From an uncultured Actinomycetes bacterium (GTDB lineage: Bacteria; Actinomycetota; Actinomycetes; S36-B12; CAIYMF01), in assembly GCA_963843975.1 (NCBI GenBank), contig CAWJMG010000003.1:2670001-2702000 (forward strand): a DNA stretch of 32,000 nt, in the 5' to 3' direction. Positions within the stretch are counted from its first letter, which is position 1. Every line of letters begins with the position of its first letter. A model generated the notes under the pieces. The model searched no databases. It saw nothing but the letters and a program-made list of their open reading frames with translations, and was not told the origin of the DNA. This document shows positions 3,564 to 26,296 of the stretch, piece after piece. The translations under genes and the position numbers were made by a program.

Positions 3564-3605
3564 CACCTTCTTCATTCCTTCATGGGATACCGCCGGCGCC
3601 TTCAT
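3564..3605 (-). promoter_or_regulatory. Candidate response-regulator operator: phased CCTTC boxes (complement of TGAAGG)
   Basis: CCTTCTT at 3566, CCTTCAT at 3577 and CCTTCAT at 3599, in 11/22-bp register, ending 50 bp upstream of the SHOCT gene start at 3655. Same word as seven other intergenic sites. Confidence 0.5.
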
Positions 3606-3654
3606 CCGGTGGCGTCATGCTCGAGACGAGGGGACGAGAAGGAGGTCGAGAACG

Positions 3655-3918
3655 ATGATGGACTGGTGGTACCCGGCATCGTGGAGTTGGAACGGCTGGC
3701 TCCCCATGGCCGCGATGATGATCCTGTTCACTGCAGCGATCGTGCTGATCGTCTGGGCTCTATTGCCCGACCGCGAGCAGCGGGACGCACACCGCAGCCT
3801 CGACACCCCAAGGGCAGTCCTGGACCGTCGCCTCGCCGCGGGCGAGATCGACTACGAGCAGTACGCCGAGGCCCGACGGCTCATCGAGGGCCAGGGCGTG
3901 ACCCCCTTGCCTCGCTGA
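3655..3918 (+). CDS. Small membrane protein with C-terminal SHOCT domain
   Basis: Start set at ATG 3655, preceded by GAAGGAGG (3639-3646). One TM (LPMAAMMILFTAAIVLIVWALL), then the SHOCT-like segment AVLDRRLAAGEIDYEQYAEARRLI. Paralog of 12705-12983 (both begin MMDW). Confidence 0.8.
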   Translation: MMDWWYPASWSWNGWLPMAAMMILFTAAIVLIVWALLPDREQRDAHRSLDTPRAVLDRRLAAGEIDYEQYAEARRLIEGQGVTPLPR

Positions 3919-3931
3919 CCCTTGGGAAGAC

Positions 3932-4540
3932 CTAGGAAGGGGACCCGACCCCGCCGGAGCACTCACCACCGGGTTCGGGCGCAGTACGACTGTTGGCGTA
4001 ACGGGTGAGGAAGTCATCCAGGCGAGGATCGTCCGGTCCGGACAGGGCGACCTGCGCCCCCCAGGCGCTGGCCACCACCGGTGTGGACAGCTCCGGTACG
4101 GCACTGGCCAGCACGTACGCCTTCCCGTCCAGCCTGGACTTCAGGTCCGTCTGCTGCACCAGGCCGAGGCTGGAGCGATAGGCGACCCAAACGGCGCCGT
4201 GCTCCATCGAGTGGACGGCGTTCTCGTTGGCGACCGGGTCGTCGTACCACCCGCAGTTCTGCCACTGCGCAGCGTGGTCGCCGCCCACCGGCGGGGACTG
4301 GGGGTAGGAGACCGGCGTAGGTACGTGCGAACTCGCGAGGCCCGTGAACGTCGACAGCCCTTCGATCGACGCCTGGCTGGACGTCCCCCGGAGCCCGACA
4401 ACGGTCAGGCCGCCGATCACGGCCACTCCCGCGAGCGTCGCCACGGTGAAGATCGTGTTGCGCCGGCGGCGCTCCTTGCGCTGCTGATCGAGGCGCATCC
4501 GGGCGGACTTCTCTCGAGCGCGGTCCTTCGACGTCATCAC
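3932..4540 (-). CDS. DUF3105 domain-containing membrane-anchored protein
   Basis: 202 aa. Basic N-terminus plus one TM (TIFTVATLAGVAVIGGLTVVGL). Conserved DUF3105-like core HVPTPVSY..PPVGGDH....HSMEHGAVWVAY. Last gene of the minus-strand envelope operon. Confidence 0.78.
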   Translation of the reverse strand: MMTSKDRAREKSARMRLDQQRKERRRRNTIFTVATLAGVAVIGGLTVVGLRGTSSQASIEGLSTFTGLASSHVPTPVSYPQSPPVGGDHAAQWQNCGWYDDPVANENAVHSMEHGAVWVAYRSSLGLVQQTDLKSRLDGKAYVLASAVPELSTPVVASAWGAQVALSGPDDPRLDDFLTRYANSRTAPEPGGECSGGVGSPS

Positions 4541-4588
4541 GTACGTCCTCTCGGTCTCGACACCGTTCAGGCGTCCGGGGCATAGCGG

Positions 4589-5179
4589 TCATTCGGCCAG
4601 CAGTCGGTCTAGTCGCTGCTCCAGCGCTGCGGGGGCGACGGCACCGATCATGGCCGTCGCGATCCGCCCTTGACGGTCCAGCACGACTGTGGAGGGGACC
4701 GCCGCTGGTGGGACGACCGGCGCCAGACGCAGCTGCAGCAACTGGTGATCGTCCGGGACAATCGGGTACGGGATGGCGAAGTAGTCGACGAAGGCTTGTG
4801 CGGCGGCCGTGGTGTCGCGCACGTCGACGCCCACGACGTCGACCCCGGCGCTGGCGTACCTCAGGCTGACTGCCCGCAGCGTCGGAGCCTCCGTTTGGCA
4901 AGGCCCGCACCACGAGGCCCACAGATTCACCACGACGACATGTCCGAGGTGCTCCGAGCTGGAAAACGGCGCGCCGCCTAACGTTGTTCCTGCGATGACA
5001 GGCCCGACCGTGCGCTCGTCCGCTGGCAGGACCGCGATTGCGCCCAGGGTGACGGCGTCGGCGCGGGCAGTCGCCGGAGTAAGGCGCTCTCCTGCGCCAG
5101 TCGGCCCGGAGCAGGCCGCCAAGAGGAGCGCCCCCGCGGCTGAGCTGCCAGCGAACCACCGCGCTGCCTGTGGGTTCAC
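4589..5179 (-). CDS. TlpA/ResA-like thiol-disulfide oxidoreductase lipoprotein
   Basis: Only the C-terminal part of track ORF 4589-6223 is protein-like. Start is GTG 5179 (GTGA overlap with the upstream stop). Lipobox LLLAAC; thioredoxin active site WASWCGPC. Confidence 0.88.
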   Translation of the reverse strand: MNPQAARWFAGSSAAGALLLAACSGPTGAGERLTPATARADAVTLGAIAVLPADERTVGPVIAGTTLGGAPFSSSEHLGHVVVVNLWASWCGPCQTEAPTLRAVSLRYASAGVDVVGVDVRDTTAAAQAFVDYFAIPYPIVPDDHQLLQLRLAPVVPPAAVPSTVVLDRQGRIATAMIGAVAPAALEQRLDRLLAE

Positions 5180-6435
5180 GAGGAGGCCAGCACCAGTAGG
5201 GCGCCGAGCAGCGCCACGGCAGTGGTGCCGGCCACGACGGGGCGGCCATAGGACGTGCGTCGCGGGGTGCTGCGGAGCGGGAAGAGCAGCTGCCGCGCGA
5301 GGATGTAGGCAGCCAAGACCACGGTGGCCAGGATCCCCGACGGGTGCGCCTCGCCGACCAGGTTGACCAGCAGCGACACGGCGCCCAGGGTGAGCGACAC
5401 CGTGCCCTCCAGGAGCTGCACCGGCAGCCGCCGAGCCAGAAGGTAGCGGTCCGAGGACACCAGCCCGACACGTCCAGGCGACAGCCGGCCAGCGCAGCAG
5501 CCACCGCGCCAGCATCCGATCCGTCCCAAGGCCATCCCGAACATCAGGCCCGGGACAATGATGTCGGTCAGGGCCCCTAGCGGCAGCCCGACTAGAGAGG
5601 CTCCCACGCCGAACGTGGCCAGGGACGCCAGCACGAAACCTTGGATGCACATCCCGGCGGAGGACAGGAGACCCACCTTGTGGGTGGCCTGGACTAGGTA
5701 GTAGACCTTCGCCCCGACCAGGCCGAGCAGGCAGGACAGCACGGCCAGCCACAGGACGGTGGTCGTCGAGAGGCCGAGGCGCGCTGCCAACCAGACGAGC
5801 ACTCCGACGCCCACCACGGCTCCCAGGGCCACCATGGCCGGCCACGCTCCGAGCACGACGCCGGGGGCGGTCTCGGCCAGGAATCGGCCGAACCCGGTGG
5901 CGCCCGTGACCTGGACGCGGCGCTTGTTCTCGCCGTCCTGGACGGTGGCTTCCCACTCTCCCGGGGCCAGGTCTGTGATGCGGATCGTCGCCGACACAGT
6001 CCCGATCCCCGGCACGACGTTGCGGATGACGTGATCGATCGCGAACTCCGTCGCCCCTGGGGGCTCGACCGCTGAACCGTCGTCGTGTTCGGGCGTTTCC
6101 CGGGCCCGTGTCCGGCGGCCGGTGAGGGTCAGGTCCAGGTCGTACGGCTCGCCGGCCTCGCGGGCCTCGAAGGTGTAAGTGAGGGCCAGCGACTGCGGCG
6201 GCATGTCCCGCACGAGTTCGCACGAGACTGGTACCACGCTCAGCCTGGCCGGATCCGTCTCCGCTGCGAGGCGGGCCGAACTCGCGGGGCGAGTCGGTGC
6301 GGCGACCACAGGAGCCGCCCGAGCCAGGAGCCGCTCCATGCCACCCACGGCAGAACCGGATCCAGCTGGAGGGTGCGGTGTCACGGCCGGGCGGGCTGCG
6401 CGCTGCCGGGGGGCCGACCTGCGCTTCTTCGACAT
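5176..6435 (-). CDS. Lgt (prolipoprotein diacylglyceryl transferase) family protein with ~190-aa N-terminal extension
   Basis: 419 aa. The C-terminal ~230 aa are polytopic with Lgt-like motifs (GAKVYYLV, ALGRIGCWRGGCCAGR, LPVQLLEG). The N-terminal half is a soluble, beta-rich-looking domain not seen in a minimal Lgt. Confidence 0.72.
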   Translation of the reverse strand: MSKKRRSAPRQRAARPAVTPHPPAGSGSAVGGMERLLARAAPVVAAPTRPASSARLAAETDPARLSVVPVSCELVRDMPPQSLALTYTFEAREAGEPYDLDLTLTGRRTRARETPEHDDGSAVEPPGATEFAIDHVIRNVVPGIGTVSATIRITDLAPGEWEATVQDGENKRRVQVTGATGFGRFLAETAPGVVLGAWPAMVALGAVVGVGVLVWLAARLGLSTTTVLWLAVLSCLLGLVGAKVYYLVQATHKVGLLSSAGMCIQGFVLASLATFGVGASLVGLPLGALTDIIVPGLMFGMALGRIGCWRGGCCAGRLSPGRVGLVSSDRYLLARRLPVQLLEGTVSLTLGAVSLLVNLVGEAHPSGILATVVLAAYILARQLLFPLRSTPRRTSYGRPVVAGTTAVALLGALLVLASS

Positions 6436-6477
6436 GGGCTGCCGCCTCTCACACTCTTCATCGTCACCGGGCGCCGC

Positions 6478-8003: not shown

Positions 8004-8073
8004 AGCGGTCGGTGTCTCCTAGCGTGGTCGCCGAAGCCTGGTGCCTCGGCGGCGGATGTGTTGGGGCGGAGGT

Positions 8074-9568
8074 TCAGGTGGTGTAGTCGAGGCGGGTCAT
8101 CATTCCCGCCTCGGCGTGGTAGGCGTTATGGCAGTGCAGCATCCACAGACCCGGGTTATCCGCGACGAGGTCAACGCTCACGGCGCCCATGGCAGGTACC
8201 AGAACGGTGTCCTTGCGCGGACCCGTTCCCCCAGCTTCGCCGAGCTGGAAGGTGTGCCCGTGCAGGTGGATCGGGTGGGGCATCATCGTCTGGTTCCTGA
8301 TCCGCAGCCGGCCCGTCTGCCCGGCAGCGATGGTCAACGGCAGCACATCGTCGTAGGTGCGCCCGTTGACGGTCCACACGTACGGCGCCATGGACCCGCC
8401 AAGGACAACGTCCTGAACGGAGTCAGGCGTCAGCTTGGCCAGGGCGCTACCGGGCGCCGCGGTCACAGCGTCCACTGTCAACGGGTAGCCGTCGAGCTGC
8501 ACGAGGGCGGTACGTCACCGCGGGGACGGCGCCGGTCGCCGTGCGCACCAGCGCCCGCGCCAGCCCGGCCTTACCCAGTGGCTGCGCCACGAACGGGAAG
8601 ACGCCGTCCTTGAGGGTGACTGTCACGTCGTACCGCTCGCCCATCCCGAGACGCAGCAGCGAAGCAGGCACCTCGTTGACGCGATAGCCGTCGGAGTGGG
8701 TGACGCGCAGATCATGGCCGTCGAGGGCGACGTCGAAGATGGTGTCGGCAGACGCGTTGATGACACGCAGCCGCACTTTCTGTCCGGGTTTGCCTGCCAG
8801 GACCTCGGGGTCCGCGGGCGCACGACCGTTGACGAGGTAGAGCGGGTACTGGACGTCTCCCCCATCCATGCCGCTCATTCCCGAGCCCGCGTCCATGCCC
8901 CCCATGTCCATTCCACCCATGCCGCCGCCGGACTTTCCCGCAGCGAGCAATCCGTCGTAGATCTCCTGCGGTGACTGGCCGACGCCATCGGTCCAGTCGT
9001 CAAGAACGACGACCCACTCGAGGTCGTAGTCGCCCGATTCAGCGGGATCGTCCACGATGAACGGCGCGTACAGGCCGCGGTCGAGCTGCATGCCGTGGTG
9101 AGGGTGGAACCAGTGTGTGCCGGCGTCGGGCACGATGAAGTCGTAGCCAAAGGACGCCCCCGCACCGATCTCCGGCGTGGTAACGCCTGGAACACCGTCC
9201 ATGTCGTTTCTGATGGCCAGGCCGTGCCAATGGACGCTGGTGGCCTCGGGAAGCCCGTTCTGGAACTCGACCTGGACCCGATCGCCAGCCGTCGCGCGTA
9301 GCGGCGGTCCAGGGACACTGCCGTTGTAGGCCCATGTCGTGACCACGGTGCCAGCCAGGTCGACCTGAGTAGGCGCGGCGGTGAGAGTGAGCTTACGGAC
9401 CTGGCCTGTGGTGGGCCGCGCCGACTCGAACTTGTCGACAAGCGGTGCCAGCTGCGAGGCGTCGGCCGCCGCTGGAGAAGCCGAACGGGAGCAAGCGGCC
9501 AGGGTCGTGGCAGCGCCCGCGCCGACAAGGCCGATCAGGACCTTGCGCCTGCTCAAACACTCACTCAC
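8074..9568 (-). pseudogene. Multicopper oxidase lipoprotein, reading frame interrupted (frameshift near 8503-8530)
   Basis: Two ORFs in different frames (8447-9568 and 8074-8502) together encode one three-domain MCO. Features: Tat-like SRRKVLIG plus lipobox TLAAC; Cu ligand motifs HWHG, WFHPHH, HPIHLHGH, HCHNAYHAEAGMM; Met-rich insert GGMGGMDMGGMDAGSGMSGMDGG. The N-frame tail after ..TGAVPAVTY is Arg/Pro junk. The C-frame has a stop at 8515-8517, just upstream of RTALVQLDGYPLT. Confidence 0.85.
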
Positions 9569-9656
9569 GCGCTCGTCCTCTCCACCGCACGACTGAGCGG
9601 CCCAGATGACCGCCTTACCAGGATGGATGCCGAGTGTGGTCGTTCCCGCCAGGAAG

Positions 9657-9678
9657 GATGAAGGTTCGATGAAGGTGT
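9657..9678 (+). promoter_or_regulatory. Candidate response-regulator operator: tandem GATGAAGGTTC GATGAAGGTGT
   Basis: Two 11-bp units in exact register, 89 bp upstream of the MCO start (9568), in the divergent intergenic region. Confidence 0.55.
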
Positions 9679-9712: not shown

Positions 9713-9734
9713 GGACCTTCATTGGACCTTCATC
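9713..9734 (-). promoter_or_regulatory. Candidate response-regulator operator: tandem GGACCTTCATT GGACCTTCATC (inverted copy of the 9657-9678 pair)
   Basis: Near-perfect 11-bp tandem, 44 bp upstream of GTG 9778, separated from the first pair by a 34-bp GC-rich spacer. Confidence 0.55.
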
Positions 9735-9777
9735 GTTGCGACGGAAGATCGCCACCCATCAGGTCGACAGTGAACCC

Positions 9778-10095
9778 GTGAACAACGCAACGACGACCTT
9801 CGACCCTGGCGCCCCCGGCGTCAGTGCCGCGGCACGCATAACCGTCATCACGGCACCTGGCTGCCACTACTGCCGCGACGCACTCGACGCGCTCGCCGAG
9901 ATCGGCGCAACGATTCCCCTCGAGGTGACCGAGGTAGATGTGCGCACCCCCGTGGGAATGTCGCTCATGCAGCAGCACGGGGCGGCGATGAGCCCTCTGG
10001 TCCTGCTTGACGGCAGTTTCGTCAGCGCAGGGCGGCTCCCGCGGGGCAAGCTCCGTTCGCTGCTGATCCAGCGAGTGGGACGGGTGACATCGTGA
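9778..10095 (+). CDS. Glutaredoxin/NrdH-like small thiol-disulfide protein
   Basis: Glutaredoxin-like core RITVITAPGCHYCRDALDALAEIG with CxxC. The stop overlaps the next gene start (GTGA). Start is uncertain: GTG 9778 was chosen because the track TTG 9685 extension covers the operator boxes; TTG 9736 is also possible. Confidence 0.72.
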   Translation: MNNATTTFDPGAPGVSAAARITVITAPGCHYCRDALDALAEIGATIPLEVTEVDVRTPVGMSLMQQHGAAMSPLVLLDGSFVSAGRLPRGKLRSLLIQRVGRVTS

Positions 10096-11072
10096 CGGAT
10101 CTGCTGACGACCGGGTCGATCCTCGCAGCCTTCCTCGCCGGCGGCGTGGCGCTGTTCGCTCCCTGCTGCATCGTGTTCCTGGCTCCCAGCTACCTCGCGG
10201 TCGCGGTCAAGAACCGACGCTGGCGCCTGCTGCCGCTCACGTTCGTGTTCGCCGCGGGGCTCGCGGCCGTGCTCGTTCCGATCACCCTCGGCATGAGCCT
10301 GCTCTCGGCTGCGATCGCCAACTACCACCGCATCCTCTACACCGGCGGGGCTTTGCTCATGTTCGCCCTCGCCGCATGGTCGCTGTCGGGCCGGATGTGG
10401 ACGATGCCAACCTTCCTGCGCTCCCCAGACACCCGCGGTGGCGACACGGCCAGCTTCTTCGCCCTCGGGGTGTTCTCCGGCATCGCCTCGTCGTGCTGCG
10501 CTCCGGTCCTGGTCGGTGTCATGACCCTTTCTGCGCTCTCAGGAAGCGCGGTCGGTGGGCTGGCCCTCGGCCTGGCCTTCGTGTTCGGCATGGTGTTTCC
10601 CCTGTTCGTGATGGCACTGCTGTGGGACCGCTTCGACCTGGGAAACCGCACGTTCCTCCAGGCAAAGCCCGTCACCCTGCGCCTGCCGCGCGGAACGACC
10701 GTGCACACCAACACCATCAACGTCGCAGTCGCGATCGCCTTCGCCGTGATGGGAAGCTTCATCCTGTATCTCGCGGAGACCGGAACCATGACGACCGGCA
10801 CGGGCTTCCAGGTCGCGTTCGGCGAGCGCCTCAGCGCCGTCTTCGCGCAGATCCAGATCTGGACTTCCGGTGTCCCGGAGCCCATCCTCGGGCTCGGCAT
10901 CCTGGCGCTGGTCTCGGTCTTCATCATCGCCACGCTCCACCACAAGGACCGGCCGGCGCCGACTCTCACCCCCTCATCGGCGCCGGCTGACAACCACAGC
11001 ACCCAGCCGCACTGCCACGGCGCTGACAGCGTCGGCCAGCCCAGCGACGCCAAGGAGAGGACCACCCCGTGA
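10092..11072 (+). CDS. CcdA-like / DsbD_2 family transmembrane thiol-reductant transporter (second paralog in window)
   Basis: 326-aa polytopic protein. Vicinal Cys pairs sit in two TM segments (LFAPCCIVFLAPSYL at nt 10164-10169; IASSCCAPVLVG at nt 10494-10499). His/Ser-rich C-terminal tail. GTGA overlaps on both sides. Confidence 0.85.
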   Translation: MTDLLTTGSILAAFLAGGVALFAPCCIVFLAPSYLAVAVKNRRWRLLPLTFVFAAGLAAVLVPITLGMSLLSAAIANYHRILYTGGALLMFALAAWSLSGRMWTMPTFLRSPDTRGGDTASFFALGVFSGIASSCCAPVLVGVMTLSALSGSAVGGLALGLAFVFGMVFPLFVMALLWDRFDLGNRTFLQAKPVTLRLPRGTTVHTNTINVAVAIAFAVMGSFILYLAETGTMTTGTGFQVAFGERLSAVFAQIQIWTSGVPEPILGLGILALVSVFIIATLHHKDRPAPTLTPSSAPADNHSTQPHCHGADSVGQPSDAKERTTP

Positions 11073-11707
11073 CTAGCCACGCCACCGCCAGGCACAACTC
11101 TCAGGAACGGCGCGAAGCCGAACGGGCCGCCCGGCTCGACCACGACCGAATCGCAGCAACCCGTAAGCGTCGCCGCACGGGTCTCAAGATCGCCGCCGGG
11201 CTGGCCGTCGTCGGACTCGTCACCGCCGGCTTGCTCAGCAGCCGTCCCCAGGACACCAGCGCCATTCGTCCGGCCCCGGGCTTCACCTTGACCGATACCA
11301 GCGGCGCTACGGTGAGCCTGGGCGACTACCTCGGAAAGAACGTCATCCTGTACTTCTCCGAGGGCGCCGGGTGCCAGTCCTGCCTGGTTCAGATGGCCCA
11401 GATCGAGAAGGCCAGGTCGAAGTTCGACGCCGCCAACCTCACCGTTCTTCCCATCGTCATGAACACCAAGGAGCAGATCACCGCTGATATGTCGGCGTAC
11501 GGCGTCAGGACTCCGTTCCTTCTCGACGACGGCTCGGTGTCCACTGCATACGGCACGATCGGCAAGGGGATGCACGGCGGTCTGCCCGGGCACTCCTTCG
11601 TCGTCATCGACGACCAGGGGCAGCAGCGCTGGTACGGCGAGTACCCCTCCATGTGGCTCGCACCCGAGGAACTGCTCACTCAGGCTACGGCAGCGCTGAC
11701 GCGCTGA
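11069..11707 (+). CDS. Membrane-anchored redoxin (AhpC/TSA-thioredoxin-like) with CxxC
   Basis: 212 aa. Basic N-terminus, one TM (LKIAAGLAVVGLVTAGLL), then a thioredoxin-fold domain with YFSEGAGCQSCLVQMAQIE. Confidence 0.85.
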   Translation: MTSHATARHNSQERREAERAARLDHDRIAATRKRRRTGLKIAAGLAVVGLVTAGLLSSRPQDTSAIRPAPGFTLTDTSGATVSLGDYLGKNVILYFSEGAGCQSCLVQMAQIEKARSKFDAANLTVLPIVMNTKEQITADMSAYGVRTPFLLDDGSVSTAYGTIGKGMHGGLPGHSFVVIDDQGQQRWYGEYPSMWLAPEELLTQATAALTR

Positions 11708-11735
11708 TGTCCGGCTGATCAAGGGAGCCATCGGC

Positions 11736-12026
11736 ATGCAATGGATCTCGGGCCTCTGGGCGGCGGGCAGCGGCTGGGCCCCCGCGCTCGTGGCCGGCGT
11801 ATGGCTGTGCCTCGTCATCACCGCCGTCGCCGCCGCACGGTCCCTCTACGGCGGCAGTTCCGACCGGGCCGACCACTCCCTGGGGCGACAGACCCACGGC
11901 GACCTGAACCGGCTCCTCGCCTCCGGGCTCATGTCCCCCCACGAGTACGAGCAGGCTCTCGACGCACTGTCACGTTCACGACGCCCGACCGTAGATGGCC
12001 ACCAACCCTGGGAAGGCAAACCATGA
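11736..12026 (+). CDS. Small membrane protein with weak SHOCT-like C-terminus
   Basis: 96 aa. AAGGGAG 9 nt upstream of ATG 11736. TM APALVAGVWLCLVITAVAAA, then DLNRLLASGLMSPHEYEQALDAL. ATGA overlap with the csoR-like gene. Confidence 0.6.
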   Translation: MQWISGLWAAGSGWAPALVAGVWLCLVITAVAAARSLYGGSSDRADHSLGRQTHGDLNRLLASGLMSPHEYEQALDALSRSRRPTVDGHQPWEGKP

Positions 12027-12325
12027 CTGCTACGAGGACGACCAACGCCGCCGGCGCCCACGCGCTCAGCGACGCAGCGGCTCGCCACGCCCTCATCGGC
12101 CGCCTGCACCGTGCCGAGGGCCAGCTCCACGGGGTTGCCGCGATGGTCGAGCAGGGCCGACCCTGCAACGAGGTAGTGGTCCAGCTGATGGCTGTGAGCA
12201 AGGCCGTGGAGCGGGCAGCCCTTCAGGTTGTAACTGAGAACCTTCGAGAGTGCGTGGCGTCCGGCGACCTGGACCTGTCGACCCTTGCTGACGACTTGGC
12301 CGGACTGCTACGCCCGATGGCATGA
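12023..12325 (+). CDS. CsoR/RcnR (DUF156) family metal- or thiol-sensing transcriptional repressor, atypical ligand set
   Basis: 100 aa from ATG 12023 inside track ORF 11741-12325. Family core RLHRAEGQLHGVAAMVEQGRPCNEVVVQLMAVSKAVERAALQVV. Cys48 and Cys77 have the canonical 29-residue spacing, but position 73 is Asn, not His. Confidence 0.85.
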   Translation: MTATRTTNAAGAHALSDAAARHALIGRLHRAEGQLHGVAAMVEQGRPCNEVVVQLMAVSKAVERAALQVVTENLRECVASGDLDLSTLADDLAGLLRPMA

Positions 12326-12591: not shown

Positions 12592-12645
12592 GGTGAAGAA
12601 CCACTAGGAACCTTCACACTTCGCCACACAGTTTCGTGAAGTTCG
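12592..12645. promoter_or_regulatory. Candidate operator cluster: GGTGAAGAACC (12592), GGAACCTTCAC (12607, opposite strand), CGTGAAGTTCG (12635)
   Basis: Three TGAAG-type boxes 60-110 bp upstream of the SHOCT-PepSY-RR-HK operon start (12705). This placement would allow autoregulation. Confidence 0.4.
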
Positions 12646-12704
12646 CCGGGCATCGTGGTTCGTGAGTCGGGACAGCGGGTCCCGCGAAGGTGAGGAGTAC
12701 GGCG

Positions 12705-12983
12705 ATGATGGACTGGTACGGAAACGGAATGGGCGGCGGGGGCTCGCTGACCTGGATGTTCATGGTGCTGTTCTGGATCGCGCTGATTGCGCTGGTCGTC
12801 TTCCTAGTGGTCAAGCTGCTACCCGGGTCGTCCCGGCAGGATGAGGTGCCCAAGTCACCGAACTCGACCGCGGTGGAGACTCCGGAGCAGGTTCTAGACC
12901 GAATGTTCGCCATGGGCGAGATCGATGAGCAGACCTACCGGGCCCGGCGCGCGGCCCTCACTGAGATGCGGAAGCCATCATGA
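12705..12983 (+). CDS. Small membrane protein with C-terminal SHOCT domain
   Basis: Start at ATG 12705, preceded by GGTGAGGAG. Gly/Met-rich N-terminus MMDWYGNGMGGGGS, one TM, then SHOCT segment QVLDRMFAMGEIDEQTYRARRAAL. ATGA overlap with the next gene. Confidence 0.8.
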   Translation: MMDWYGNGMGGGGSLTWMFMVLFWIALIALVVFLVVKLLPGSSRQDEVPKSPNSTAVETPEQVLDRMFAMGEIDEQTYRARRAALTEMRKPS

Positions 12984-13423
12984 GTGCGCATCGTCGTGGC
13001 TATCTCGCTGCACTCGTCATCGCGGTCGTGACCCTGATCGGGACGGTCGGTGCCGCAGCCGTCTACGCCACGTCTCACGGTTCCCGATGGGCTGCGGCCT
13101 CCCCTGCTGACAACGGCGACACGGGATGGGGCGAGATGATGGGCGGCTCGGGACGGGGCGGCGGCACGATGGGTGGCTCCGACTCGGGCACCGCTACCGT
13201 GAGCCTGCGGCAAGCGCAGACGATCGCTCATGACTGGGTATCCAAGAACGCCGCCGGCGCGACCCTCGACTCCGGAGTGACCATGCCGATGGGCTACGTG
13301 TTCACCGTAAGCCAGGTCAATCAGATGGTGGCTCGCATCATGGTGAACGACGACACAGGCGAGGTCATTGTCCGCAGCGTGACCTACTCGAGGCCCACCG
13401 CGACAGCCAGATCGGTTAACTGA
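12980..13423 (+). CDS. Membrane-anchored protein with PepSY-like C-terminal domain
   Basis: 147 aa. N-terminal TM (YLAALVIAVVTLIGTVGAAAV), a Gly/Met-rich linker (GWGEMMGGSGRGGGTMGGS), then a PepSY-like segment SLRQAQTIAHDWV...VFTV...VNDDTGEVI. Confidence 0.6.
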   Translation: MSAHRRGYLAALVIAVVTLIGTVGAAAVYATSHGSRWAAASPADNGDTGWGEMMGGSGRGGGTMGGSDSGTATVSLRQAQTIAHDWVSKNAAGATLDSGVTMPMGYVFTVSQVNQMVARIMVNDDTGEVIVRSVTYSRPTATARSVN

Positions 13424-13425
13424 CC

Positions 13426-14142
13426 ATGCCGGACGCGGCAACGCCCCCCGGGAAGGGGGCGAGGGTGAGGGCACTCGTCATCGAAGACGAAGCCCCCATC
13501 CGTCGTGTCATCGCCGCGTACCTCACCCAGGAAGGGTTCGACGTCAGTGAGATCGACAATGGGCTGACCGCGCTCGAGGTTATCGAACGGGAGCTGCCCG
13601 ATGTCATCGTCCTGGACCTGATGCTGCCCGGCCTCGACGGCGTCGAAGTCTGCCGGCGGTTGCGCACGTTCAGCGATGCCTATGTCGTGATGCTCACCGC
13701 TCGAGCAGAGGAGGTCGACACTCTCATCGGCCTTTCTGTGGGGGCGGACGACTACATGACGAAACCATTTAGCAACCGCGAGCTCGTCGCCCGGATCCAC
13801 GCCATGATGCGGCGCCCGCGAGCCAGTCTCCCAGCCGACGGAGTGCGCGCGTTCGGGAGCCTGAAGATCGACCCGGAAAGTCGGGAAGTCATCCTTGACG
13901 GAGCCTCCGTGGAATTCACCCGCACCGAGTTCGATATTCTCGATGTCCTGTCCGCTCAACCGCGGCGCGTCTACTCCCGGGAACGACTCATCGACGCGGT
14001 GTGGGGAGCCGGCTGGATCGCTGACGCCCGCATCGTCGACGTCCACGTCTCCCACATCCGCGCGAAGCTCGGCGACTCTACGACAGACCCGAAGTACATC
14101 CTGACCGTCCGTGGCGTCGGGTTCCGGATGGGCACCGGATGA
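13426..14142 (+). CDS. OmpR/PhoB-family response regulator (CopR-like by context)
   Basis: 238 aa. Receiver domain (ALVIEDE.., DVIVLDLMLPGLDG, KPF) plus a winged-helix domain (LTVRGVGFRMG). ATGA overlap with the kinase gene. Confidence 0.93.
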   Translation: MPDAATPPGKGARVRALVIEDEAPIRRVIAAYLTQEGFDVSEIDNGLTALEVIERELPDVIVLDLMLPGLDGVEVCRRLRTFSDAYVVMLTARAEEVDTLIGLSVGADDYMTKPFSNRELVARIHAMMRRPRASLPADGVRAFGSLKIDPESREVILDGASVEFTRTEFDILDVLSAQPRRVYSRERLIDAVWGAGWIADARIVDVHVSHIRAKLGDSTTDPKYILTVRGVGFRMGTG

Positions 14143-15302
14143 CCCGGCAACGGGTCGTGGCCTCGCACGGGCAGGGGCCAACCCTGCGCATCCGCATATT
14201 CGGGGTCATGGGCCTGGTCGTGTTGGCCGGAGCCGGTACACTCCTGCTCGTTGCCCTGCTCGCGGCGCCGGCAGTGTTCTACCGATCTCTTATCAGTGCT
14301 GGGGTCGACCCAAACACCGAGCTTGCCGCCCGCGTCCACCAGGGGTTCGCCTCCGCAACACTGGTGTCGATCGCGGCCGGCGTCGCCGCTGCGATCCTGG
14401 TGGCGGCGATGATGTCCATCCTGGTCACAAGACGCATCACCCAGCCGATCACCGAGGCTGCCGCCGCAGCCGAGCGGCTCGCTGCTGGCGACTACAGCGC
14501 GCGAGCCGCCGCTTCGCGCATGGGTCCCGAGCTCGCCAGCCTGACGTCCTCGGTGAACACCCTCGCCCAGCGCCTCGAGGCGAGCGAGCAAGCCCGCCAA
14601 CGCCTCATGTCCGACCTCGCGCACGAGCTCCGCACCCCCCTGACGTCGATCGACGCCACCGTCGAAGCGATCGCCGACGGAGTCCTCCCGGCGGATCGGA
14701 GTACCCTCCGAACACTCACGGACCAAGCCCGGCGCCTCGACCGTCTCATCGACGATCTCAACGCCGCCTCCCGGGCAGACGAACACGCGTTTCGGGTGAA
14801 CACTCAAGTGACCGAAATTTCCGACGTCGTTCGTTCAACCGTCTCACAAGCCCACGCTCGATACACCAGCTTCGGCGTCGCACTTGAGACCGTGAACGTT
14901 GCGAAAGCCACGGCGTTTGCTGACCCAGACCGACTCGCGGAGGTTCTCGGCCAGCTCCTCGACAACTCCCTGGCCCAGTGCGTGGACGGAGACATCGTCC
15001 GCGTTTCGTGGATCACGCACTCCGACGACGTTCAAATCACGGTCTCCGACACAGGGCGTGGTTTCGATCCGCAGGACGCCGAACGGTTGTTCCAACGCTT
15101 CTACCGCCGACAACCCGACCCAGCTGGGCGGGCGGCCGGGGGGCACGGCGTCGGCCTCACCATCGCGAGAGCGCTGATCGAAGCGCAGAACGGAACGCTC
15201 ACCGCGACAAGCACTGGGCTGGGATGCGGCGCCTCATTCACCATCACAGTCCCACGCCGCCAGGACCTGAGAGCCACTCACGCGGCCTCCACCCGGAGCT
15301 GA
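14139..15302 (+). CDS. HAMP-domain sensor histidine kinase with very short extracytoplasmic loop (CopS-like by context)
   Basis: 387 aa. Two TMs flank a ~25-30-aa loop. HAMP domain, H-box SDLAHELRTPLTSI, N/G boxes (LLDNSL.., DTGRGF, GHGVGLTIARALIEAQNG). Confidence 0.92.
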   Translation: MTRQRVVASHGQGPTLRIRIFGVMGLVVLAGAGTLLLVALLAAPAVFYRSLISAGVDPNTELAARVHQGFASATLVSIAAGVAAAILVAAMMSILVTRRITQPITEAAAAAERLAAGDYSARAAASRMGPELASLTSSVNTLAQRLEASEQARQRLMSDLAHELRTPLTSIDATVEAIADGVLPADRSTLRTLTDQARRLDRLIDDLNAASRADEHAFRVNTQVTEISDVVRSTVSQAHARYTSFGVALETVNVAKATAFADPDRLAEVLGQLLDNSLAQCVDGDIVRVSWITHSDDVQITVSDTGRGFDPQDAERLFQRFYRRQPDPAGRAAGGHGVGLTIARALIEAQNGTLTATSTGLGCGASFTITVPRRQDLRATHAASTRS

Positions 15303-17799: not shown

Positions 17800-18000
17800 G
17801 GTGCCCTCCCTGACGCGGCACCAGCCTGGGATGCCGATGACGCCATGGTTTCAGCACGACCCGGTTCAATCGGTGTTCGACCGGTCAAGTTCCCATGTAG
17901 GTCAACGACTTGTCCGTGAATCGGGTTGCACCTCAGAGTTCTGCACTTCGTCGGTGGTCGACGACACGAGCGGGTGCCCATCGTGTGGCAACGCTGTGAC

Positions 18001-20091
18001 TCACTGCGACGCCGACGACGCGAGCCCGCACGCGCACGCCAGTCTCAGGGCCGTCTCCTTCGCCCGTTCCAGCTGCTCCGCAAGCGCGCGTCGCTGCGCC
18101 CAGGCGAGTTCGCGGCGACGCAGCGCCGGCTCGATCCGCCTCAGTTCCTCGTCGCTGACCGGAAGCGAGAAGGCGATCGAGACCATCTGGGCCAGATCCG
18201 CTCGGTAGTCGTGGCCGCGCGCCACGAAGGTTCCCGGTACGACATTCAGGGCATTGAGCATGTCGATGCCCGTCATCAGGAACGTCGTCAGGGGCCGCCA
18301 TCGCGTCGTCCTCGGTATCCCCGGTGGCCGGTGGGACTCCGGTCCCAGCCATGTCGGCTCCTGAACGAGGAGAGCGGCCTCGAAGCGAGTGACCGGGTCC
18401 TCGTGATGGGAGAGCAGGAAGAAGCGGTGACGATCACGGTCCTTCCCGTGTGCGGTCATCCACTCGGCGTGGGAAGCGACCTCAACGATCTCTCCAGCCG
18501 GGTCCTCCCGAGCCGGGGAAGCCCTCCACTGGCGTGCCCACTTGCTGGTTGCCGGCGTCCCGAGGAACAAGGCCCGGTCGATGCCGGCTCGGTGCAGGCC
18601 GCCCGTTCCCTCGCCGAGGAACGCGTCCTGGAGCGTATGTGCGCCGAGTGACTCTCCGAAGCCGACGAGGCGGGGACGCAAGCCGTCGGGTATTGCGGCT
18701 AGACGCCACCTCAATGCGTGCAGGAGTGCCCGGTTCTGCTCTCGCCCGATTGAGACTCGGTCGATCGACAGGAAGGACGGGCGTAGCGAGTACTGCAAGG
18801 CCACCGTGGCGCAGTCACCTCTCGTGAGGTGCTCAAGGGTCTCGACTGCGACGTAGTTGACGTAGCCGCTGCCCGTGGGCGATGCGAGGCAGATCACGGA
18901 GCGCTGGAAGGCTCCGAGCTTCTCGAGGTCCGCCATCACAAGGTCCACGCGGGCATCGACCGTGGCTGCCGAGGCCACCCCCGCGTAGGCACGCACGGGC
19001 ACGGTGACCTGGTCGAGCGGCGATCCCGTGGTCGCCGCGATCTCTTGCCTTGACAGGGCCATGTTGACGAATCGGACCCCCTCACGCGACAGCGTCCGCC
19101 AGCCGATCGACGAGGACGGCCCACCGCTGACCGATTCGCTCTCGGGGCAGGTCGCATAGGCTGCCTCAACGCCCGCGCCGAAGAACTCTGCCCTGCGGGT
19201 GGCAACCCTGAGTCCGGTCAGCAGCATGGCGCCAACTGCGGCCAACGAGACGGCTCGGCCCACCAGCCCCGCGACCGCCCCGTCGTCGCCCACGACGGGC
19301 CGCACCCATAGGGCCACCCGGCGCGCGAGGAGCGCGTCCGCGGCCGCGACGCCTTCCAGGCACAGCGCGACGGCCGTACCGAGAGCGACAGATCTGGCTA
19401 TCGGCGGCAAGGGGTCCAGCCTTGGCCCCTCCGTGGCGCGAGCAGGGTCAGGGCGACTGGCCACAGGGTCGGTCGGCGGCGGCAGAGCCCCCGGGTCCTG
19501 GACTCGATGGGCCATCGCGATCGACCGGCTCGCTAACGCGACGCCGAGGAGTCGGGCGCTGCTTGCCGCAACGGCGCGCAACGTGGGGCCGGCATGAACG
19601 CGGCGTGTCGCGCACCGGGCGGCGCTGTCTGCAGCTTCGACCACGAGTCTGGCGACGCCCACCTGCACGACCCGGTGACCAACCGTGCGGGCGACGGCCC
19701 GACGCAAGGACTCACCCGGCCGGTCGGCCGCCAGCAGGTGCAGAGTGACACCAGAACCCATGAGGGCCGCCGTCGCGATGGCTCGCGTTCCGGGCCCTGT
19801 GGACGAGGCGTCACGTGTCCTGGTCACAGCGCGGACGACCGCGGTCGCCGCATACTGCGACGCCAGGACCAGTCCGTACTCGGTAGCCCCGACGACGCCG
19901 ATCAGCAGCGCCTGATCCTTCATGCGGCGAGGCATCAGACCGAGGGAGAAACTCGAGCCTACCGCCGCGGTGGCCACCAGCACCGCCGTGCGTCCAGCCG
20001 TGTCTCCCCCGGTCAGGTGGCGCACAGCGACCTGGCGCAGCTTGCGCCGATCTACCATGGGGACCACCGTGCGCTCGAACGAGGCTGCCAC
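18001..20091 (-). CDS. Membrane-anchored alpha/beta-hydrolase family protein (N-terminal multi-TM domain plus C-terminal hydrolase domain)
   Basis: 696 aa. The N-terminal ~300 aa has several TMs (SFSLGLMPRRMKDQALLIGVVG...). The C-terminal domain has VICLASPTGSGYVNYVAVETLEH and a nucleophile-elbow-like GFGESLGAH. Start could instead be M12 (20058). Confidence 0.72.
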   Translation of the reverse strand: MAASFERTVVPMVDRRKLRQVAVRHLTGGDTAGRTAVLVATAAVGSSFSLGLMPRRMKDQALLIGVVGATEYGLVLASQYAATAVVRAVTRTRDASSTGPGTRAIATAALMGSGVTLHLLAADRPGESLRRAVARTVGHRVVQVGVARLVVEAADSAARCATRRVHAGPTLRAVAASSARLLGVALASRSIAMAHRVQDPGALPPPTDPVASRPDPARATEGPRLDPLPPIARSVALGTAVALCLEGVAAADALLARRVALWVRPVVGDDGAVAGLVGRAVSLAAVGAMLLTGLRVATRRAEFFGAGVEAAYATCPESESVSGGPSSSIGWRTLSREGVRFVNMALSRQEIAATTGSPLDQVTVPVRAYAGVASAATVDARVDLVMADLEKLGAFQRSVICLASPTGSGYVNYVAVETLEHLTRGDCATVALQYSLRPSFLSIDRVSIGREQNRALLHALRWRLAAIPDGLRPRLVGFGESLGAHTLQDAFLGEGTGGLHRAGIDRALFLGTPATSKWARQWRASPAREDPAGEIVEVASHAEWMTAHGKDRDRHRFFLLSHHEDPVTRFEAALLVQEPTWLGPESHRPPGIPRTTRWRPLTTFLMTGIDMLNALNVVPGTFVARGHDYRADLAQMVSIAFSLPVSDEELRRIEPALRRRELAWAQRRALAEQLERAKETALRLACACGLASSASQ

Positions 20092-20248
20092 CCAACTGAA
20101 CGGCGATCCATGGTCCGGCTGTGGCCGCTACCCTGCCGTGCCGGCCCGGGGCACGACGCACGACTGCCAGGCTCCGAGACGACCGTGACCGGGGAGGCTG
20201 TCATGCTCCCAATGTTGAGCGTGGAGGCCTCAGGTCTGCCGGAGATCC

Positions 20249-20270
20249 GGTGAAGGTCCCGTGAAGCCCC
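20249..20270 (+). promoter_or_regulatory. Candidate response-regulator operator: tandem GGTGAAGGTCC CGTGAAGCCCC
   Basis: 11-bp register, 158 bp upstream of the hydrolase start (20091), inside the 525-bp gap downstream of the ATPase. Confidence 0.4.
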
Positions 20271-20572: not shown

Positions 20573-20591
20573 GGACGGCTCAGCACCGTCC
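20573..20591 (-). terminator. Possible stem-loop downstream of the ATPase gene
   Basis: GGACGG-N7-CCGTCC, 26-44 nt after the ATPase stop (20617-20619). Short stem, no U-tract. A second palindrome, CATGCGC-N6-GCGCATG, lies at 20482-20501. Confidence 0.25.
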
Positions 20592-20616
20592 GGACGGCAA
20601 CGCTCCCCAGCGTCGG

Positions 20617-23604: not shown

Positions 23605-23864
23605 CGTTCGCTCCGATCTGCCGGGTTCGCGCTCGAGGACTCTTCCTCGGGACACACGTCGAACCCGGCTCCGTGCAGGGCTTCGGATACGAGCTCGGGC
23701 GCGACTGTTGCCGAGGACGTCACCGCGACCAACGAGTGCCCCGCGTGCATCGCCCCGACGGTCACGCGAGTGACACCTGGGACTTCGATGAGCGCGTCGA
23801 GGACGAACCCGATGCAGATGGGACAGTGCAGCCCGGAGACGTCCAGGTTCGCGGTCCTCACCAT
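23601..23864 (-). CDS. Heavy-metal-associated (HMA) domain copper chaperone, CopZ-like
   Basis: 87 aa from ATG 23864 inside track ORF 23601-24236. Ferredoxin-like HMA pattern with the variant site [15 protein letters not shown]. Acidic C-terminal tail. Confidence 0.85.
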
Positions 23865-23896
23865 CGGTCTGCCCTTCCCTGTGGACCTGATCGGCC

Positions 23897-23920
23897 CTGC
23901 ACGTTGTTCAACATGTGCAG
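23897..23920. promoter_or_regulatory. Imperfect palindrome upstream of the copZ-ATPase operon
   Basis: CTGCACGTTG-TT-CAACATGTGCAG, with outer 6-bp arms CTGCAC/GTGCAG perfect. It lies 33-56 bp upstream of the copZ-like start, between that start and the TGAAG boxes. Confidence 0.25.
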
Positions 23921-23944
23921 CCTGTCGCGTGCTTCCGTCAAGTG

Positions 23945-23966
23945 GCTGAAGGTTCGATGAAGAGTC
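23945..23966 (+). promoter_or_regulatory. Candidate response-regulator operator: tandem GCTGAAGGTTC GATGAAGAGTC
   Basis: 11-bp register, 81 bp upstream of the copZ-like start (23864) and 49 bp upstream of candidate small ORF GTG 24015. It shares the 14-mer TGAAGGTTCGATGA with the 9657-9678 site. Confidence 0.5.
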
Positions 23967-24014
23967 GGCGCGCGGGCGGTATCCAAGGTCGGCCCGGGTG
24001 CCTACTCTGGTCTC

Positions 24015-24179
24015 GTGGAATTCGTGCTTGGTGGCCTTGTCCTCGCCTTTCTGGTGTTCGTCATCGTCGGTGGACTCACGGGCCGGGTGAAGACTCAGTC
24101 GTGCTGCTCCACGTCGGCCGCCGACCCACGTCGGGATCTCCGGATGGCCGCCGCCTTCGAGGACGAGCCGGCGCCCTAA
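24015..24179 (+). CDS. Candidate unannotated small membrane protein (54 aa, one TM plus vicinal Cys pair)
   Basis: GTG 24015 to TAA 24177-24179: VEFVLGGLVLAFLVFVIVGGLTGRVKTQSCCSTSAADPRRDLRMAAAFEDEPAP. A 20-residue hydrophobic helix is unusual for a chance ORF in GC-rich DNA. GC3 is about 80% by hand count. No clear SD sequence, and it is below the track length cutoff. Confidence 0.3.
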   Translation: MEFVLGGLVLAFLVFVIVGGLTGRVKTQSCCSTSAADPRRDLRMAAAFEDEPAP

Positions 24180-24439
24180 GGATTCTGTGCCTGACGCAGG
24201 CACGCCCTCGCGGTGCCAAGGCCCTGGGTCACGCAACGGGCTGCTCTTTGCCCGTTGCGCTCACCTCTGGCGACGGCCTCTGGGCGTGCTCGGACCTCAG
24301 CCTCAACGTGCCGCGAAGAGTCTCATCGATTTCAGCTGGGCTGTTTCTCAGGCGCGGCCATCCCCGTCAGAGTGCCCCGGCCGACGTGGAGCAGACGGCT
24401 GTTGCCGGCCCTGGGCTGGACGCGACCACACCCCGCTTC

Positions 24440-24457
24440 CCTTGACCGAACCTTCAT
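24440..24457 (-). promoter_or_regulatory. Candidate response-regulator operator: CCTTGAC-N4-CCTTCAT
   Basis: Two boxes in 11-bp register, ending 80 bp upstream of the DUF2933 gene start (24537). Confidence 0.4.
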
Positions 24458-24536
24458 CGCCCAAACGCCTGAACAACATCGGCGCGGAGCATCGTGTGAG
24501 ACGTCAGCAAGCAGTCCTAGCATCGAGGAGCGCGCC

Positions 24537-24848
24537 ATGACGCACAGCAGCCACATCAAGTACATGATCATCGCTGGGGCCGTCGCGCTCGCCGGTTTGT
24601 GGGCCTTCGGCGTACCGCTAGGCCGCGCGCTCCCATACGCGATCCTGCTGGCCTGCCCGCTGATGATGGTGTTCATGATGCGTGGCATGGACCACGGCGG
24701 GCACGGCGGAGCCAGCCATGCACCCTCCGAGACGGACACCGCCGGACACCAGCATCACGACCGATCGACCACCAACCCCGTCGACGCCCCAACGCCGACC
24801 TTGGCGGGCGACCAGATCACCGGCATCGACAAGGAATACCGACGCTGA
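24537..24848 (+). CDS. DUF2933 domain-containing small membrane protein, His-rich tail
   Basis: 103 aa from ATG 24537 (GAGGAG 7 nt upstream) inside track ORF 24213-24848. Two TMs with LLACPLMMVFMMRGMDHGGHGG, typical of DUF2933. Tail contains HQHHD. Confidence 0.75.
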   Translation: MTHSSHIKYMIIAGAVALAGLWAFGVPLGRALPYAILLACPLMMVFMMRGMDHGGHGGASHAPSETDTAGHQHHDRSTTNPVDAPTPTLAGDQITGIDKEYRR

Positions 24849-24932
24849 GCCACGGGAACACCGGCGCAAGTCGCTGCAAAGTCGGTCGGCCTGCGAGGCT
24901 GGGTCCGCGATGATGCTGTTCCGCTTGCCATA

Positions 24933-26243
24933 ATGGGAGTCGTGAAGGCTGCCACAGGTTCTCGCCCGCTCGACCACGAGTCGCTCCAGCCGCTCATCGA
25001 GCGGTGGCGCGCGGACCCAGGCGGCACCTACAGGACCTGGTTCCTGTGGGACGAGCGGCTCAAGAATTTTCGCACGCTCCGCCGTGGCATCGAAAGGGTC
25101 TCCCTCGACATCGAGGAAGGCAGTTTCGGCACCTCCTACCGAGGATCCTCACTCGAGACCGTGGTGCACGGGATCGCCGAACAACGGCAGGTCTTCAAGG
25201 GTGCCGACCATGCCTTCCTGTGGAAGCCGAAGCTACGAATCCCAGACATCTACGAAAACCGCGACAACCAACTCGCATTCGGACGAGCCCTGGAGACGTG
25301 CAGGTGCTGCACCTCGGAAACGCAAGTTCTCGCAGCCGTGCGATCGCTTGACGCTCAACGGATTAAGGGGCTTGGACCGGCCGTCGCCAACCTTCTGTAC
25401 TTCCTTCACCCGACGATCATGCCGCCCTTCAACACCGCCATCGTTGCGGGCTACAACACCTTGACTGGCGCACGAACCAAACTCGGCAGCTGGGAACAGT
25501 ACCTGGCCATGCGCGAGGGAATCCTCCGCCTCAACGACACTCACCGATCCCTGCTGTCCAACGACCTCGGCGCAATTGCTGGGCTGCTGTTCGATGTCGG
25601 GAAGGGACGCTACCCAGCGCCCCCACAGTCGACAGAGCGCGATTCCGCTGAACACCTTGCGTGGTTGAACGACTTGGACCGGGCACGTGAGGATGCGCGC
25701 TCCGCCGCGTCCGCAAGCGCGATGCTCGCTCTCGATGTCACGCACACAACGATGCAAGGCTGGTTGCGCGACCTTGGCATGGCCCTCGGCTACGACGTGT
25801 GGATCGCCTCCAACGACAAGAATCGCCCCTACGCCGGAGGCCGGCTCGCTGACGGCTGCCGTACCTCATTGCCGCCCGTGATCGCCGCGTCACCAGCAGC
25901 AGAGGCCATCGGCCTGATCGACGTTCTGTGGATCGCCTCGGACGACAGCGTCGCAGCCGCCTTCGAGGTCGAACACAGCACCTCGATCTACTCCGGCGTC
26001 GTGCGCATGCTGGACCTCGCTCTCAGCGACGGAGGAACCCAGCTGCGGGGAATGTTCCTCGTGGCACCGGACGCTCGCGAGGACGAGGTGCGGGCGCAAC
26101 TCAGGCGTCCCGCGTTCAGCCGTGTGTCTGACCTCAGCGTTCGCTACCTCCGCTACGGCGAACTCGAGCGCCACCGCGAAGCCATCGCCCGCTTTGGACA
26201 GGGACTCCACCCGATTGAGCAGTTGTCACACGCGCTCAACTGA
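24933..26243 (+). CDS. Hypothetical protein with restriction-endonuclease-like C-terminal domain (orphan, no methyltransferase nearby)
   Basis: 436-aa ORF. The C-terminal pattern GYDVWIASNDKN...LIDVLWIASDDSVAAAFEVEHSTSIYSGVVRMLDL...FLVAPD matches a family I recognise as commonly annotated type II restriction endonuclease. HhH-like IKGLGPAVANLLYF lies mid-protein. G+C is visibly lower than the flanks. Confidence 0.6.
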   Translation: MGVVKAATGSRPLDHESLQPLIERWRADPGGTYRTWFLWDERLKNFRTLRRGIERVSLDIEEGSFGTSYRGSSLETVVHGIAEQRQVFKGADHAFLWKPKLRIPDIYENRDNQLAFGRALETCRCCTSETQVLAAVRSLDAQRIKGLGPAVANLLYFLHPTIMPPFNTAIVAGYNTLTGARTKLGSWEQYLAMREGILRLNDTHRSLLSNDLGAIAGLLFDVGKGRYPAPPQSTERDSAEHLAWLNDLDRAREDARSAASASAMLALDVTHTTMQGWLRDLGMALGYDVWIASNDKNRPYAGGRLADGCRTSLPPVIAASPAAEAIGLIDVLWIASDDSVAAAFEVEHSTSIYSGVVRMLDLALSDGGTQLRGMFLVAPDAREDEVRAQLRRPAFSRVSDLSVRYLRYGELERHREAIARFGQGLHPIEQLSHALN

Positions 26244-26274
26244 CGCGCGGTTGCATCCGCAGCATCTGCCATTG

Positions 26275-26296
26275 GATGAAGGTCTGATGAAGTCTG
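26275..26296 (+). promoter_or_regulatory. Candidate response-regulator operator: tandem GATGAAGGTCT GATGAAGTCTG
   Basis: 11-bp register, 32 bp after the endonuclease-like stop and 192 bp upstream of the ATP-grasp start. It is the only site with no minus-strand gene to its left. Confidence 0.4.

Follow-up and report, generated by a model that had tools for sequence, protein, structure and literature searches.

A candidate CopR-type regulon of paired CCTTCAT repeats in an actinobacterial copper-resistance island, and a paralogous regulator with a probable box of its own

As reported, the copper regulator CopR of Corynebacterium glutamicum is an activator with the published box TGAAGATTTnnTGAAGATTT (PMC3140484). 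This box, TGAAGATTTgaTGAAGATTT, was established by electrophoretic mobility shift assay and mutagenesis (Schelder et al. 2011, PMC3140484). On one side of it, CopR activates cg3286, copO (multicopper oxidase), cg3288 and tlpA, and on the other side copR, copS, cg3283, cg3282 and copB (ATPase), while its identity to CusR and CinR is only 33-34% (PMC3140484). Here, we analyzed a 32,000-nt stretch from an uncultured Actinomycetes bacterium (contig CAWJMG010000003.1, hereafter the window), which Pfam scans characterize as a copper-resistance island in a high-GC actinobacterial genome. Its intergenic regions carry paired CCTTCAT repeats, and the island encodes two response regulators, RR1 and RR2, each followed by a histidine kinase, HK1 and HK2. 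We consider it probable that the paired repeats are operators of a CopR-type regulator of the OmpR/PhoB family, with RR1, phosphorylated by HK1, as the leading candidate.

The repeat observation itself is confirmed. The exact heptamer ATGAAGG/CCTTCAT occurs nine times in the window against 1.75 expected, and none of 100 dinucleotide-preserving shuffles reaches nine. The exact dimer TGAAG-N6-TGAAG is present five times, in all five cases between genes, and eight copies are found when at most one mismatch is allowed, compared with 0.68 expected (0/100 shuffles). Seven of these eight near-exact dimers fall in the 3,679 non-coding bases, defined as what our own gene model leaves over, which make up 11.5% of the window (binomial P = 1.9e-6). 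Moreover, the enrichment is specific to the 11-bp period, with 0-3 matches for each of the other periods from 8 to 15 bp. The tandem pairs in 11-bp register listed by the original prediction were all verified at their positions by reading the sequence, and its view that one-turn direct repeats represent the OmpR/PhoB operator format agrees with the 11-bp period, the uniform orientation and the fixed promoter position. It had also confined the exact heptamer to non-coding gaps and allowed its variants a single mismatch; however, one copy lies inside the Abhydrolase_9 open reading frame (19917-19923), and three half-sites carry two mismatches (GTGAAGC at 20261, CCTTGAC at 24440 and CCTTCTT at 3566). 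The three copies reported at 12592-12645 do not form an 11-bp pair; of these, CCTTCAC (12611-12617) is the only one that L085, the closest relative, shares and that sits in the right place.

A 24-bp matrix was built from the seven window sites, and matches scoring 15 bits or more were counted. It was run on 15 loci that encode relatives of RR1 (54-82% identity; Cellulomonas, Mycolicibacterium, Dermatophilaceae, Nanopelagicales and metagenomes), where about 270 kb contained 34 matches; 38 high-GC control loci, whose regulators are more distant, contained 2 in 654 kb. The matches in the relatives are nearly all intergenic; with CCTTCAT reading towards the gene, they precede it by 36-130 bp. The genes that follow encode Trx/DsbD/TlpA proteins, DUF305, DUF3105, an HMA chaperone with an ATPase, a cupredoxin, DUF326 and an HMA/DsbD_2/cupredoxin protein. 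Many of these sites read GATGAAGATTCGATGAAG, which is almost the C. glutamicum box sequence. The consensus of 23 independent sites is (c/g)ATGAAG(G/A)TTCGATGAAG(G/A), in which the TGAAG bases are near-invariant. That the repeats are chance AT-rich intergenic words, or remnants of repeats or mobile elements rather than protein sites, has a probability close to negligible. Intergenic DNA is indeed somewhat AT-richer than coding DNA, and the box at 26276 has no target; against this, the period is specific to 11 bp, the boxes are kept beside unrelated flanks in distant actinobacterial genomes, the high-GC controls are nearly free of matches, and the spacing to the -10 element is fixed in one direction only.

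Each site has the size expected of a dimer, with two 11-bp units of the consensus cgATGAAGGTTCGATGAAGG on one strand, upstream of six promoters and with CCTTCAT reading towards the gene. The strong sites were oriented as CCTTCAT and scanned downstream for a -10-like hexamer, NANNNT. This hexamer lies exactly 32 nt after the proximal repeat in five of the seven window sites (CATCCT, CAACAT, CATCGT, GACAGT and CATGCT). Among 20 sites of other genomes, 15 have it at a distance of 32 or 33 nt (P about 4e-14); the background is 3-4% per offset. In the opposite direction from the same sites, no NANNNT spacing peak is observed. Additionally, the box promoters show no -35 consensus, and a consensus sigma-70 promoter scan of 3400-27000 found nothing, a result that is uninformative when taken alone. 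Because spacing and orientation are fixed and a sigma-70 consensus is absent, we read these as activator-dependent promoters; at the sequence level, the orientation and function of the boxes are settled. If the hexamer is the -10 element (-12 to -7), the 22-bp site would span about -67 to -44, upstream of the -35 position. It is very unlikely that the same regulator binds but represses, or that the roles of the boxes are mixed. At 3599-3605, 22 bp past the proximal repeat and between the box and the -10 element, a third CCTTCA-like copy in the same phase would be compatible with repression; such copies accompany no more than 3 of 27 sites (L005, L073 and L001 also hold some), and a third half-site 22 bp downstream was rejected as a general feature on this count. 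The position of the boxes upstream of -35 at a fixed distance, the missing -35 consensus and the activating role of CopR in C. glutamicum (PMC3140484) all argue against repression.

A scan of metagenome contigs for the exact published 20-mer box yielded about 20 Corynebacterium-type cop islands and, with them, the CopR sequence; in these islands, the box precedes copR by 59-78 bp, in agreement with the paper. Identity to C. glutamicum-type CopR is 50% for RR1 (231 bits) and 50-51% for RR2 (214 bits), and HK2 is slightly nearer to CopS than HK1 is. The best solved relatives of RR1 are MtrA and RegX3 (188 bits), and neither RR1 nor RR2 reaches a curated NCBIfam cut-off. All motif-linked regulators fall into one clade of a neighbour-joining tree together with C. 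glutamicum CopR, RR1 and RR2, apart from the Streptomyces-type and MtrA-like regulators. The original prediction had pointed to the C. glutamicum box and a regulon holding a multicopper oxidase, a TlpA-like protein and a Cu ATPase, which is as published (PMC3140484). Its proposal of a CopR-type regulon is supported in silico by the shared TGAAG core and 11-bp period, by the same kinds of targets, by the co-occurrence of the boxes with CopR-clade regulators across Actinobacteria and by the 32-nt spacing to the -10-like hexamer. A literature search for the motif string and related actinobacterial systems found only the C. glutamicum work and its review.

Since RR1 and RR2 cannot be separated by overall similarity, the loci of RR2 orthologues were examined. 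These orthologues (70-81% identity) keep a module of GNAT, in some cases M15 peptidase, regulator and kinase, without copper genes. In all four cases, including the window, the GNAT gene is preceded by CGTCAT-N5-CGTCAT, with a -10-like GAC(G/C)AT 32 nt further downstream; the orthologous boxes are at 8362-8378 in L212, 1825-1841 in L213 and 8977-8993 in L214. Among 214 loci, this dimer occurs in three, exactly those with RR2 orthologues, and it occurs once in the window. The base that separates the two boxes (CTTCA versus CGTCA) is invariant in 22-23 of 23 CopR-type sites. Furthermore, the recognition helix reads VDVHVSHIR in RR1, VDVHIGNLR in C. glutamicum CopR and VDVH[VI][GSA][HN]xR across regulators linked to CTTCA boxes, whereas RR2-type regulators have VDAH[VI]ARLR. 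Two positions distinguish the helices of the two groups (Val to Ala, and His/Asn to Arg). In the PhoB-DNA structure these positions contact DNA, and an Arg there reads a guanine; this is a lead rather than a test.

That RR2/HK2 (30562 onward) binds the CCTTCAT boxes is extremely unlikely. Its similarity to C. glutamicum-type CopR would favor it, as would HK2, with 39-40% identity to CopS and both loop histidines retained; however, the orthologues retain their module without copper genes and with a different conserved box, the distinguishing base is invariant in the CCTTCAT-type sites, and the RR2 helix departs at two positions. As a binder of the CCTTCAT boxes, RR2 was rejected after its own conserved CGTCAT box emerged, and the same box makes RR1 the likely binder. 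The original prediction had named both regulators without deciding between them; the comparative evidence points to the one at 13426-14142. The CGTCAT box lies outside the CCTTCAT regulon and acts as a specificity control. It would mark a second regulon, pho-box-like and run by a CopR paralogue, with a possible link to the cell wall. Collectively, RR1 likely binds the CCTTCAT boxes, while RR2 likely runs a separate circuit.

Several points weigh against this assignment, besides the similarity of RR2 and HK2 to the C. glutamicum pair given above. The promoter of RR1 itself has one good half-site only, and the orthologous four-gene operon promoters of RR1 type have degenerate repeats at the same position. 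Two loci whose regulators are 69-71% identical to RR1 (L087 and L089) show nothing at or above 15 bits in the 10 kb to each side. In L090, two CTTCA-type systems lie side by side, and the strong boxes belong to the type with regulator, kinase and ATPase, not to the four-gene-module type. HK1 is missing one of two histidines conserved in the short sensor loop across the kinase clade. Finally, the copZ promoter has a spacing of 30 rather than 32, and the orphan box at 26276 is without a -10 element at the canonical spacing. Some of these observations would suit an arrangement in which the boxes are CopR-type operators, while their main binder is a regulator of the same clade encoded outside the window and RR1 controls its own operon or shares sites: the paired systems of L090, the weak or degenerate boxes of RR1-type operon promoters, and the loci L087 and L089 without boxes. 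This arrangement is rather unlikely, as RR1 sits in the middle of a box-bearing island, the closest relative L085 (regulator 82% identical, same operon) has strong boxes nearby, the RR1 recognition helix is CopR-type and no other candidate regulator was seen in the window.

With RR1 as the binder, the proposed sequence of events would be as follows. Envelope copper stress would be sensed by the kinase HK1, leading to phosphorylation of RR1, and a phospho-RR1 dimer at the 22-bp site would recruit or stabilize RNA polymerase and turn transcription on. Activation through polymerase recruitment is suggested by analogy with C. glutamicum CopR and the OmpR/PhoB family, and both copper dependence and RR1 binding at the boxes are deduced from sequence. 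The targets would be the small SHOCT-like membrane protein, the multicopper oxidase cluster, the Trx/DsbD/TlpA/CsoR operon, the alpha/beta hydrolase, the CopZ and Cu-ATPase operon, the His/Met-rich DUF2933 protein and, more weakly, the four-gene operon of RR1 itself. A box differing by one base (CGTCAT) at the same spacing would keep the RR2/HK2 circuit apart.

RR1-type systems form a conserved four-gene operon (also in L085, L087, L089, L090, L001, L005 and L007). Its two leading genes (12705-13423 in the window, plus strand) are for small membrane proteins that contain Met/Gly-rich stretches, MMDWYGNGMGGGGS... and ...GWGEMMGGSGRGGGTMGG.... These two proteins may be accessory or real copper sensors. 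PepSY, the name that the original prediction had given to the second member of this operon, gave no match for 12980-13423 in Pfam and NCBIfam scans (E <= 0.01). In addition, in a Corynebacterium-type cop island (L119), the CopR box at 3307-3326, read CTTCA-wise towards cg3286, is followed by CACCCT at +34, in line with the geometry of the window sites, which suggests an unrecognized CopR-dependent promoter beside the C. glutamicum box, a point left unexplained in the 2011 paper. Such a promoter, if real, would explain the published cg3286 transcription start about 270 bp from the CopR box (PMC3140484). We advance only tentatively, and with less confidence than doubt, the combined picture of two circuits with operators one base apart (CCTTCAT versus CCGTCAT) and the same 32-nt spacing, the small proteins, always co-transcribed with a kinase that has lost a conserved loop histidine, as sensors, and a hidden promoter in C. 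glutamicum.

Table 1. Positions of the boxes, predicted promoter elements and genes in the window.
Feature	Position	Strand	Associated gene or remark
CopR-type box, CCTTCTT-N4-CCTTCAT	3566..3583	+	Promoter of small SHOCT-like membrane protein gene 3655-3918
Predicted -10, CATGCT	3616-3621	+	SHOCT-like gene promoter (3655)
Minus-strand cluster	9568->3932	-	Multicopper oxidase, DUF305, BNR-repeat protein, Lgt-like, DUF3105
CopR-type box, two exact heptamers	9658..9675	-	Multicopper oxidase promoter
Predicted -10, CATCCT	9620-9625	-	Multicopper oxidase promoter
CopR-type box, two exact heptamers	9716..9733	+	Thiol-redox operon 9778-12325
Predicted -10, GACAGT	9766-9771	+	Directly before GTG 9778
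Thiol-redox operon	9778-12325	+	Trx-like, DsbD-like, TlpA/redoxin, small open reading frame, CsoR
Single conserved half-site, CCTTCAC	12611..12617	+	Promoter of four-gene operon 12705-15302
-10-like, CATCGT	12651-12656	+	33 nt after half-site 12611-12617
Four-gene operon	12705-15302	+	Small SHOCT-like membrane protein, 147-aa protein, RR1, HK1
RR1, OmpR/PhoB-family response regulator, CopR clade	13426..14142	+	Proposed binder of CCTTCAT boxes
HK1, cognate histidine kinase (HAMP-HisKA-HATPase), short extracytoplasmic loop	14139..15302	+	
CopR-type box, proximal CCTTCAC, distal GCTTCAC	20250..20267	-	Upstream of Abhydrolase_9 gene 20091->18001
Predicted -10, CAACAT	20212-20217	-	Abhydrolase_9 gene
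CopR-type box	23946..23963	-	CopZ-like chaperone and cupredoxin-fused Cu P-type ATPase operon 23864->20617
-10-like, CATGTT	23910-23915	-	copZ/ATPase promoter, spacing 30
CopR-type box, CCTTGAC-N4-CCTTCAT	24440..24457	+	His/Met-rich DUF2933 protein gene 24537-24848
Predicted -10, CATCGT	24490-24495	+	DUF2933 gene
Orphan CopR-type box	26276..26293	-	31.8 bits; points into 3' end of unrelated 436-aa gene
Paralogue box, CGTCATG-N4-CGTCAT (CGTCAT-N5-CGTCAT)	28859..28875	+	Promoter of GNAT, M15 peptidase, RR2, HK2
-10, GACCAT	28908-28913	+	32 nt downstream of CGTCAT box
GNAT, M15 peptidase, RR2, HK2	28949->32000	+	Right end of window
RR2, paralogous response regulator, changed recognition helix VDAHVARLR	30562..31260	+	Proposed binder of CGTCAT box

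Based on their positions (Table 1), the individual sites can be further described. The box before the multicopper oxidase probably drives the whole minus-strand cluster, and the transcript of the thiol-redox operon is possibly leaderless. The half-site before the four-gene operon suggests a weak autoregulatory site of RR1. At the copZ/ATPase promoter, a unique perfect palindrome, TGCAC-N12-GTGCA (23898-23919), overlaps the predicted -10 element; it is unlike the canonical CsoR box, and a second regulator, acting as a repressor, may use it as its operator. For the orphan pair 26276/26287, no downstream gene exists in the orientation shared by the other sites, and an insertion may have cut this box off from a former target. 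The open reading frame for 436 amino acids (24933-26243, plus strand) between the DUF2933 gene and the orphan box has no family match and no copper link. A weak box-like sequence at 17883-17906 (13.3 bits), 83 bp upstream of the DoxX/cyclopropane-synthase genes, is without a -10 element at the canonical spacing; it was not counted and is probably not functional.

Two genes of the island have particular structures. The multicopper oxidase gene is split over two overlapping frames on the minus strand (N-terminal part 8447-9568, C-terminal part 8074-8502), and in the related locus L002 both parts share one frame. The split is a frameshift, either a pseudogene or an assembly indel. CsoR corresponds to a gene for 100 amino acids at 12023-12325, according to gene calls on identical metagenome contigs, and the open reading frame of high third-position GC content at 11736-12026, in another frame than CsoR, is a separate small gene without a family match.

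Because the only characterized actinobacterial CopR has a single site, it provides little information on the motif or on promoter architecture. The island and its relatives supply about 30 sites, from which one can derive the consensus of the family, its strict orientation and the rule of 32-nt spacing. The predicted copper regulon joins the oxidase, thiol-redox and chaperone/ATPase genes with DUF305, DUF3105, DUF2933, DUF326 and SHOCT-like proteins of unknown role, and would enable annotation of copper-induced genes of unknown function across Actinobacteria. Moreover, a paralogue with a box differing by one base offers a clean specificity test and permits binding and helix-swap designs; if true, it would show in a natural setting, across a whole family, how duplicated OmpR-type regulators stay separate. 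The general understanding of the way in which such systems work stays unchanged.

Among other known systems, PhoB binds the pho box as a head-to-tail winged-helix dimer on two 11-bp direct repeats, at promoters without a good -35 element, the place of which the box takes. The window boxes share the two 11-bp direct-repeat units with the Escherichia coli pho box, and the RR2 box CCGTCATGnAAnCGTCAT is similar to TGTCA, the core of the pho box. In contrast, the window boxes end 32 nt before the -10 element, upstream of -35, and the half-site CTTCA and the signal differ. The proteobacterial CusRS/CopRS systems (TIGR01387, cztR_silR_copR) likewise place a multicopper oxidase and efflux genes under copper-responsive two-component control. 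However, RR1 scores 162.8 bits and RR2 177 bits against the TIGR01387 cut-off of 279.2, so that neither is a member, and the proteobacterial cop box is inverted-repeat-like, unlike the direct repeat here. CsoR, a cytoplasmic repressor released by Cu(I), binds GC-rich inverted repeats. The CsoR/RicR regulons of Actinobacteria also control copper chaperone and ATPase operons, and the island has a CsoR gene; the CCTTCAT sites, being direct repeats, belong to a different class of operator, and a pattern search of the window found no CsoR box of the TACCC-N7-GGGTA type.

The closest likeness is to C. glutamicum CopRS, with an OmpR-family regulator of the same clade, a direct-repeat box with an 11-bp period and a TGAAG core, and the same kinds of targets, namely a multicopper oxidase, a TlpA-like thioredoxin and a Cu P-type ATPase (in the window by Pfam assignment). 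The C. glutamicum targets also include the genes of the regulator itself. In C. glutamicum, a single site serves two divergent operons, whereas the window has seven full boxes and one half-site at about seven promoters. After TGAAG, the window consensus continues G/A-T-T/C-C-G, compared with ATTTnn in C. glutamicum. RR1 lies behind two small Met/Gly-rich membrane protein genes, which the C. glutamicum island does not have; a 9-kDa hypothetical open reading frame beside the C. glutamicum box was considered as a homologue of the SHOCT-like proteins and rejected, as its translated frames show no resemblance. Furthermore, HK1 is without the His/Met cluster present in the CopS loop, and the promoter of RR1, unlike that of copR, has a half-site only. 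Collectively, these comparisons support the island as a new and larger example of the CopR-type regulon known first from C. glutamicum rather than a new kind of system, to which it would add, as predictions from sequence comparison, the family consensus, the fixed rule of spacing and orientation, and a paralogue box that differs by one base.

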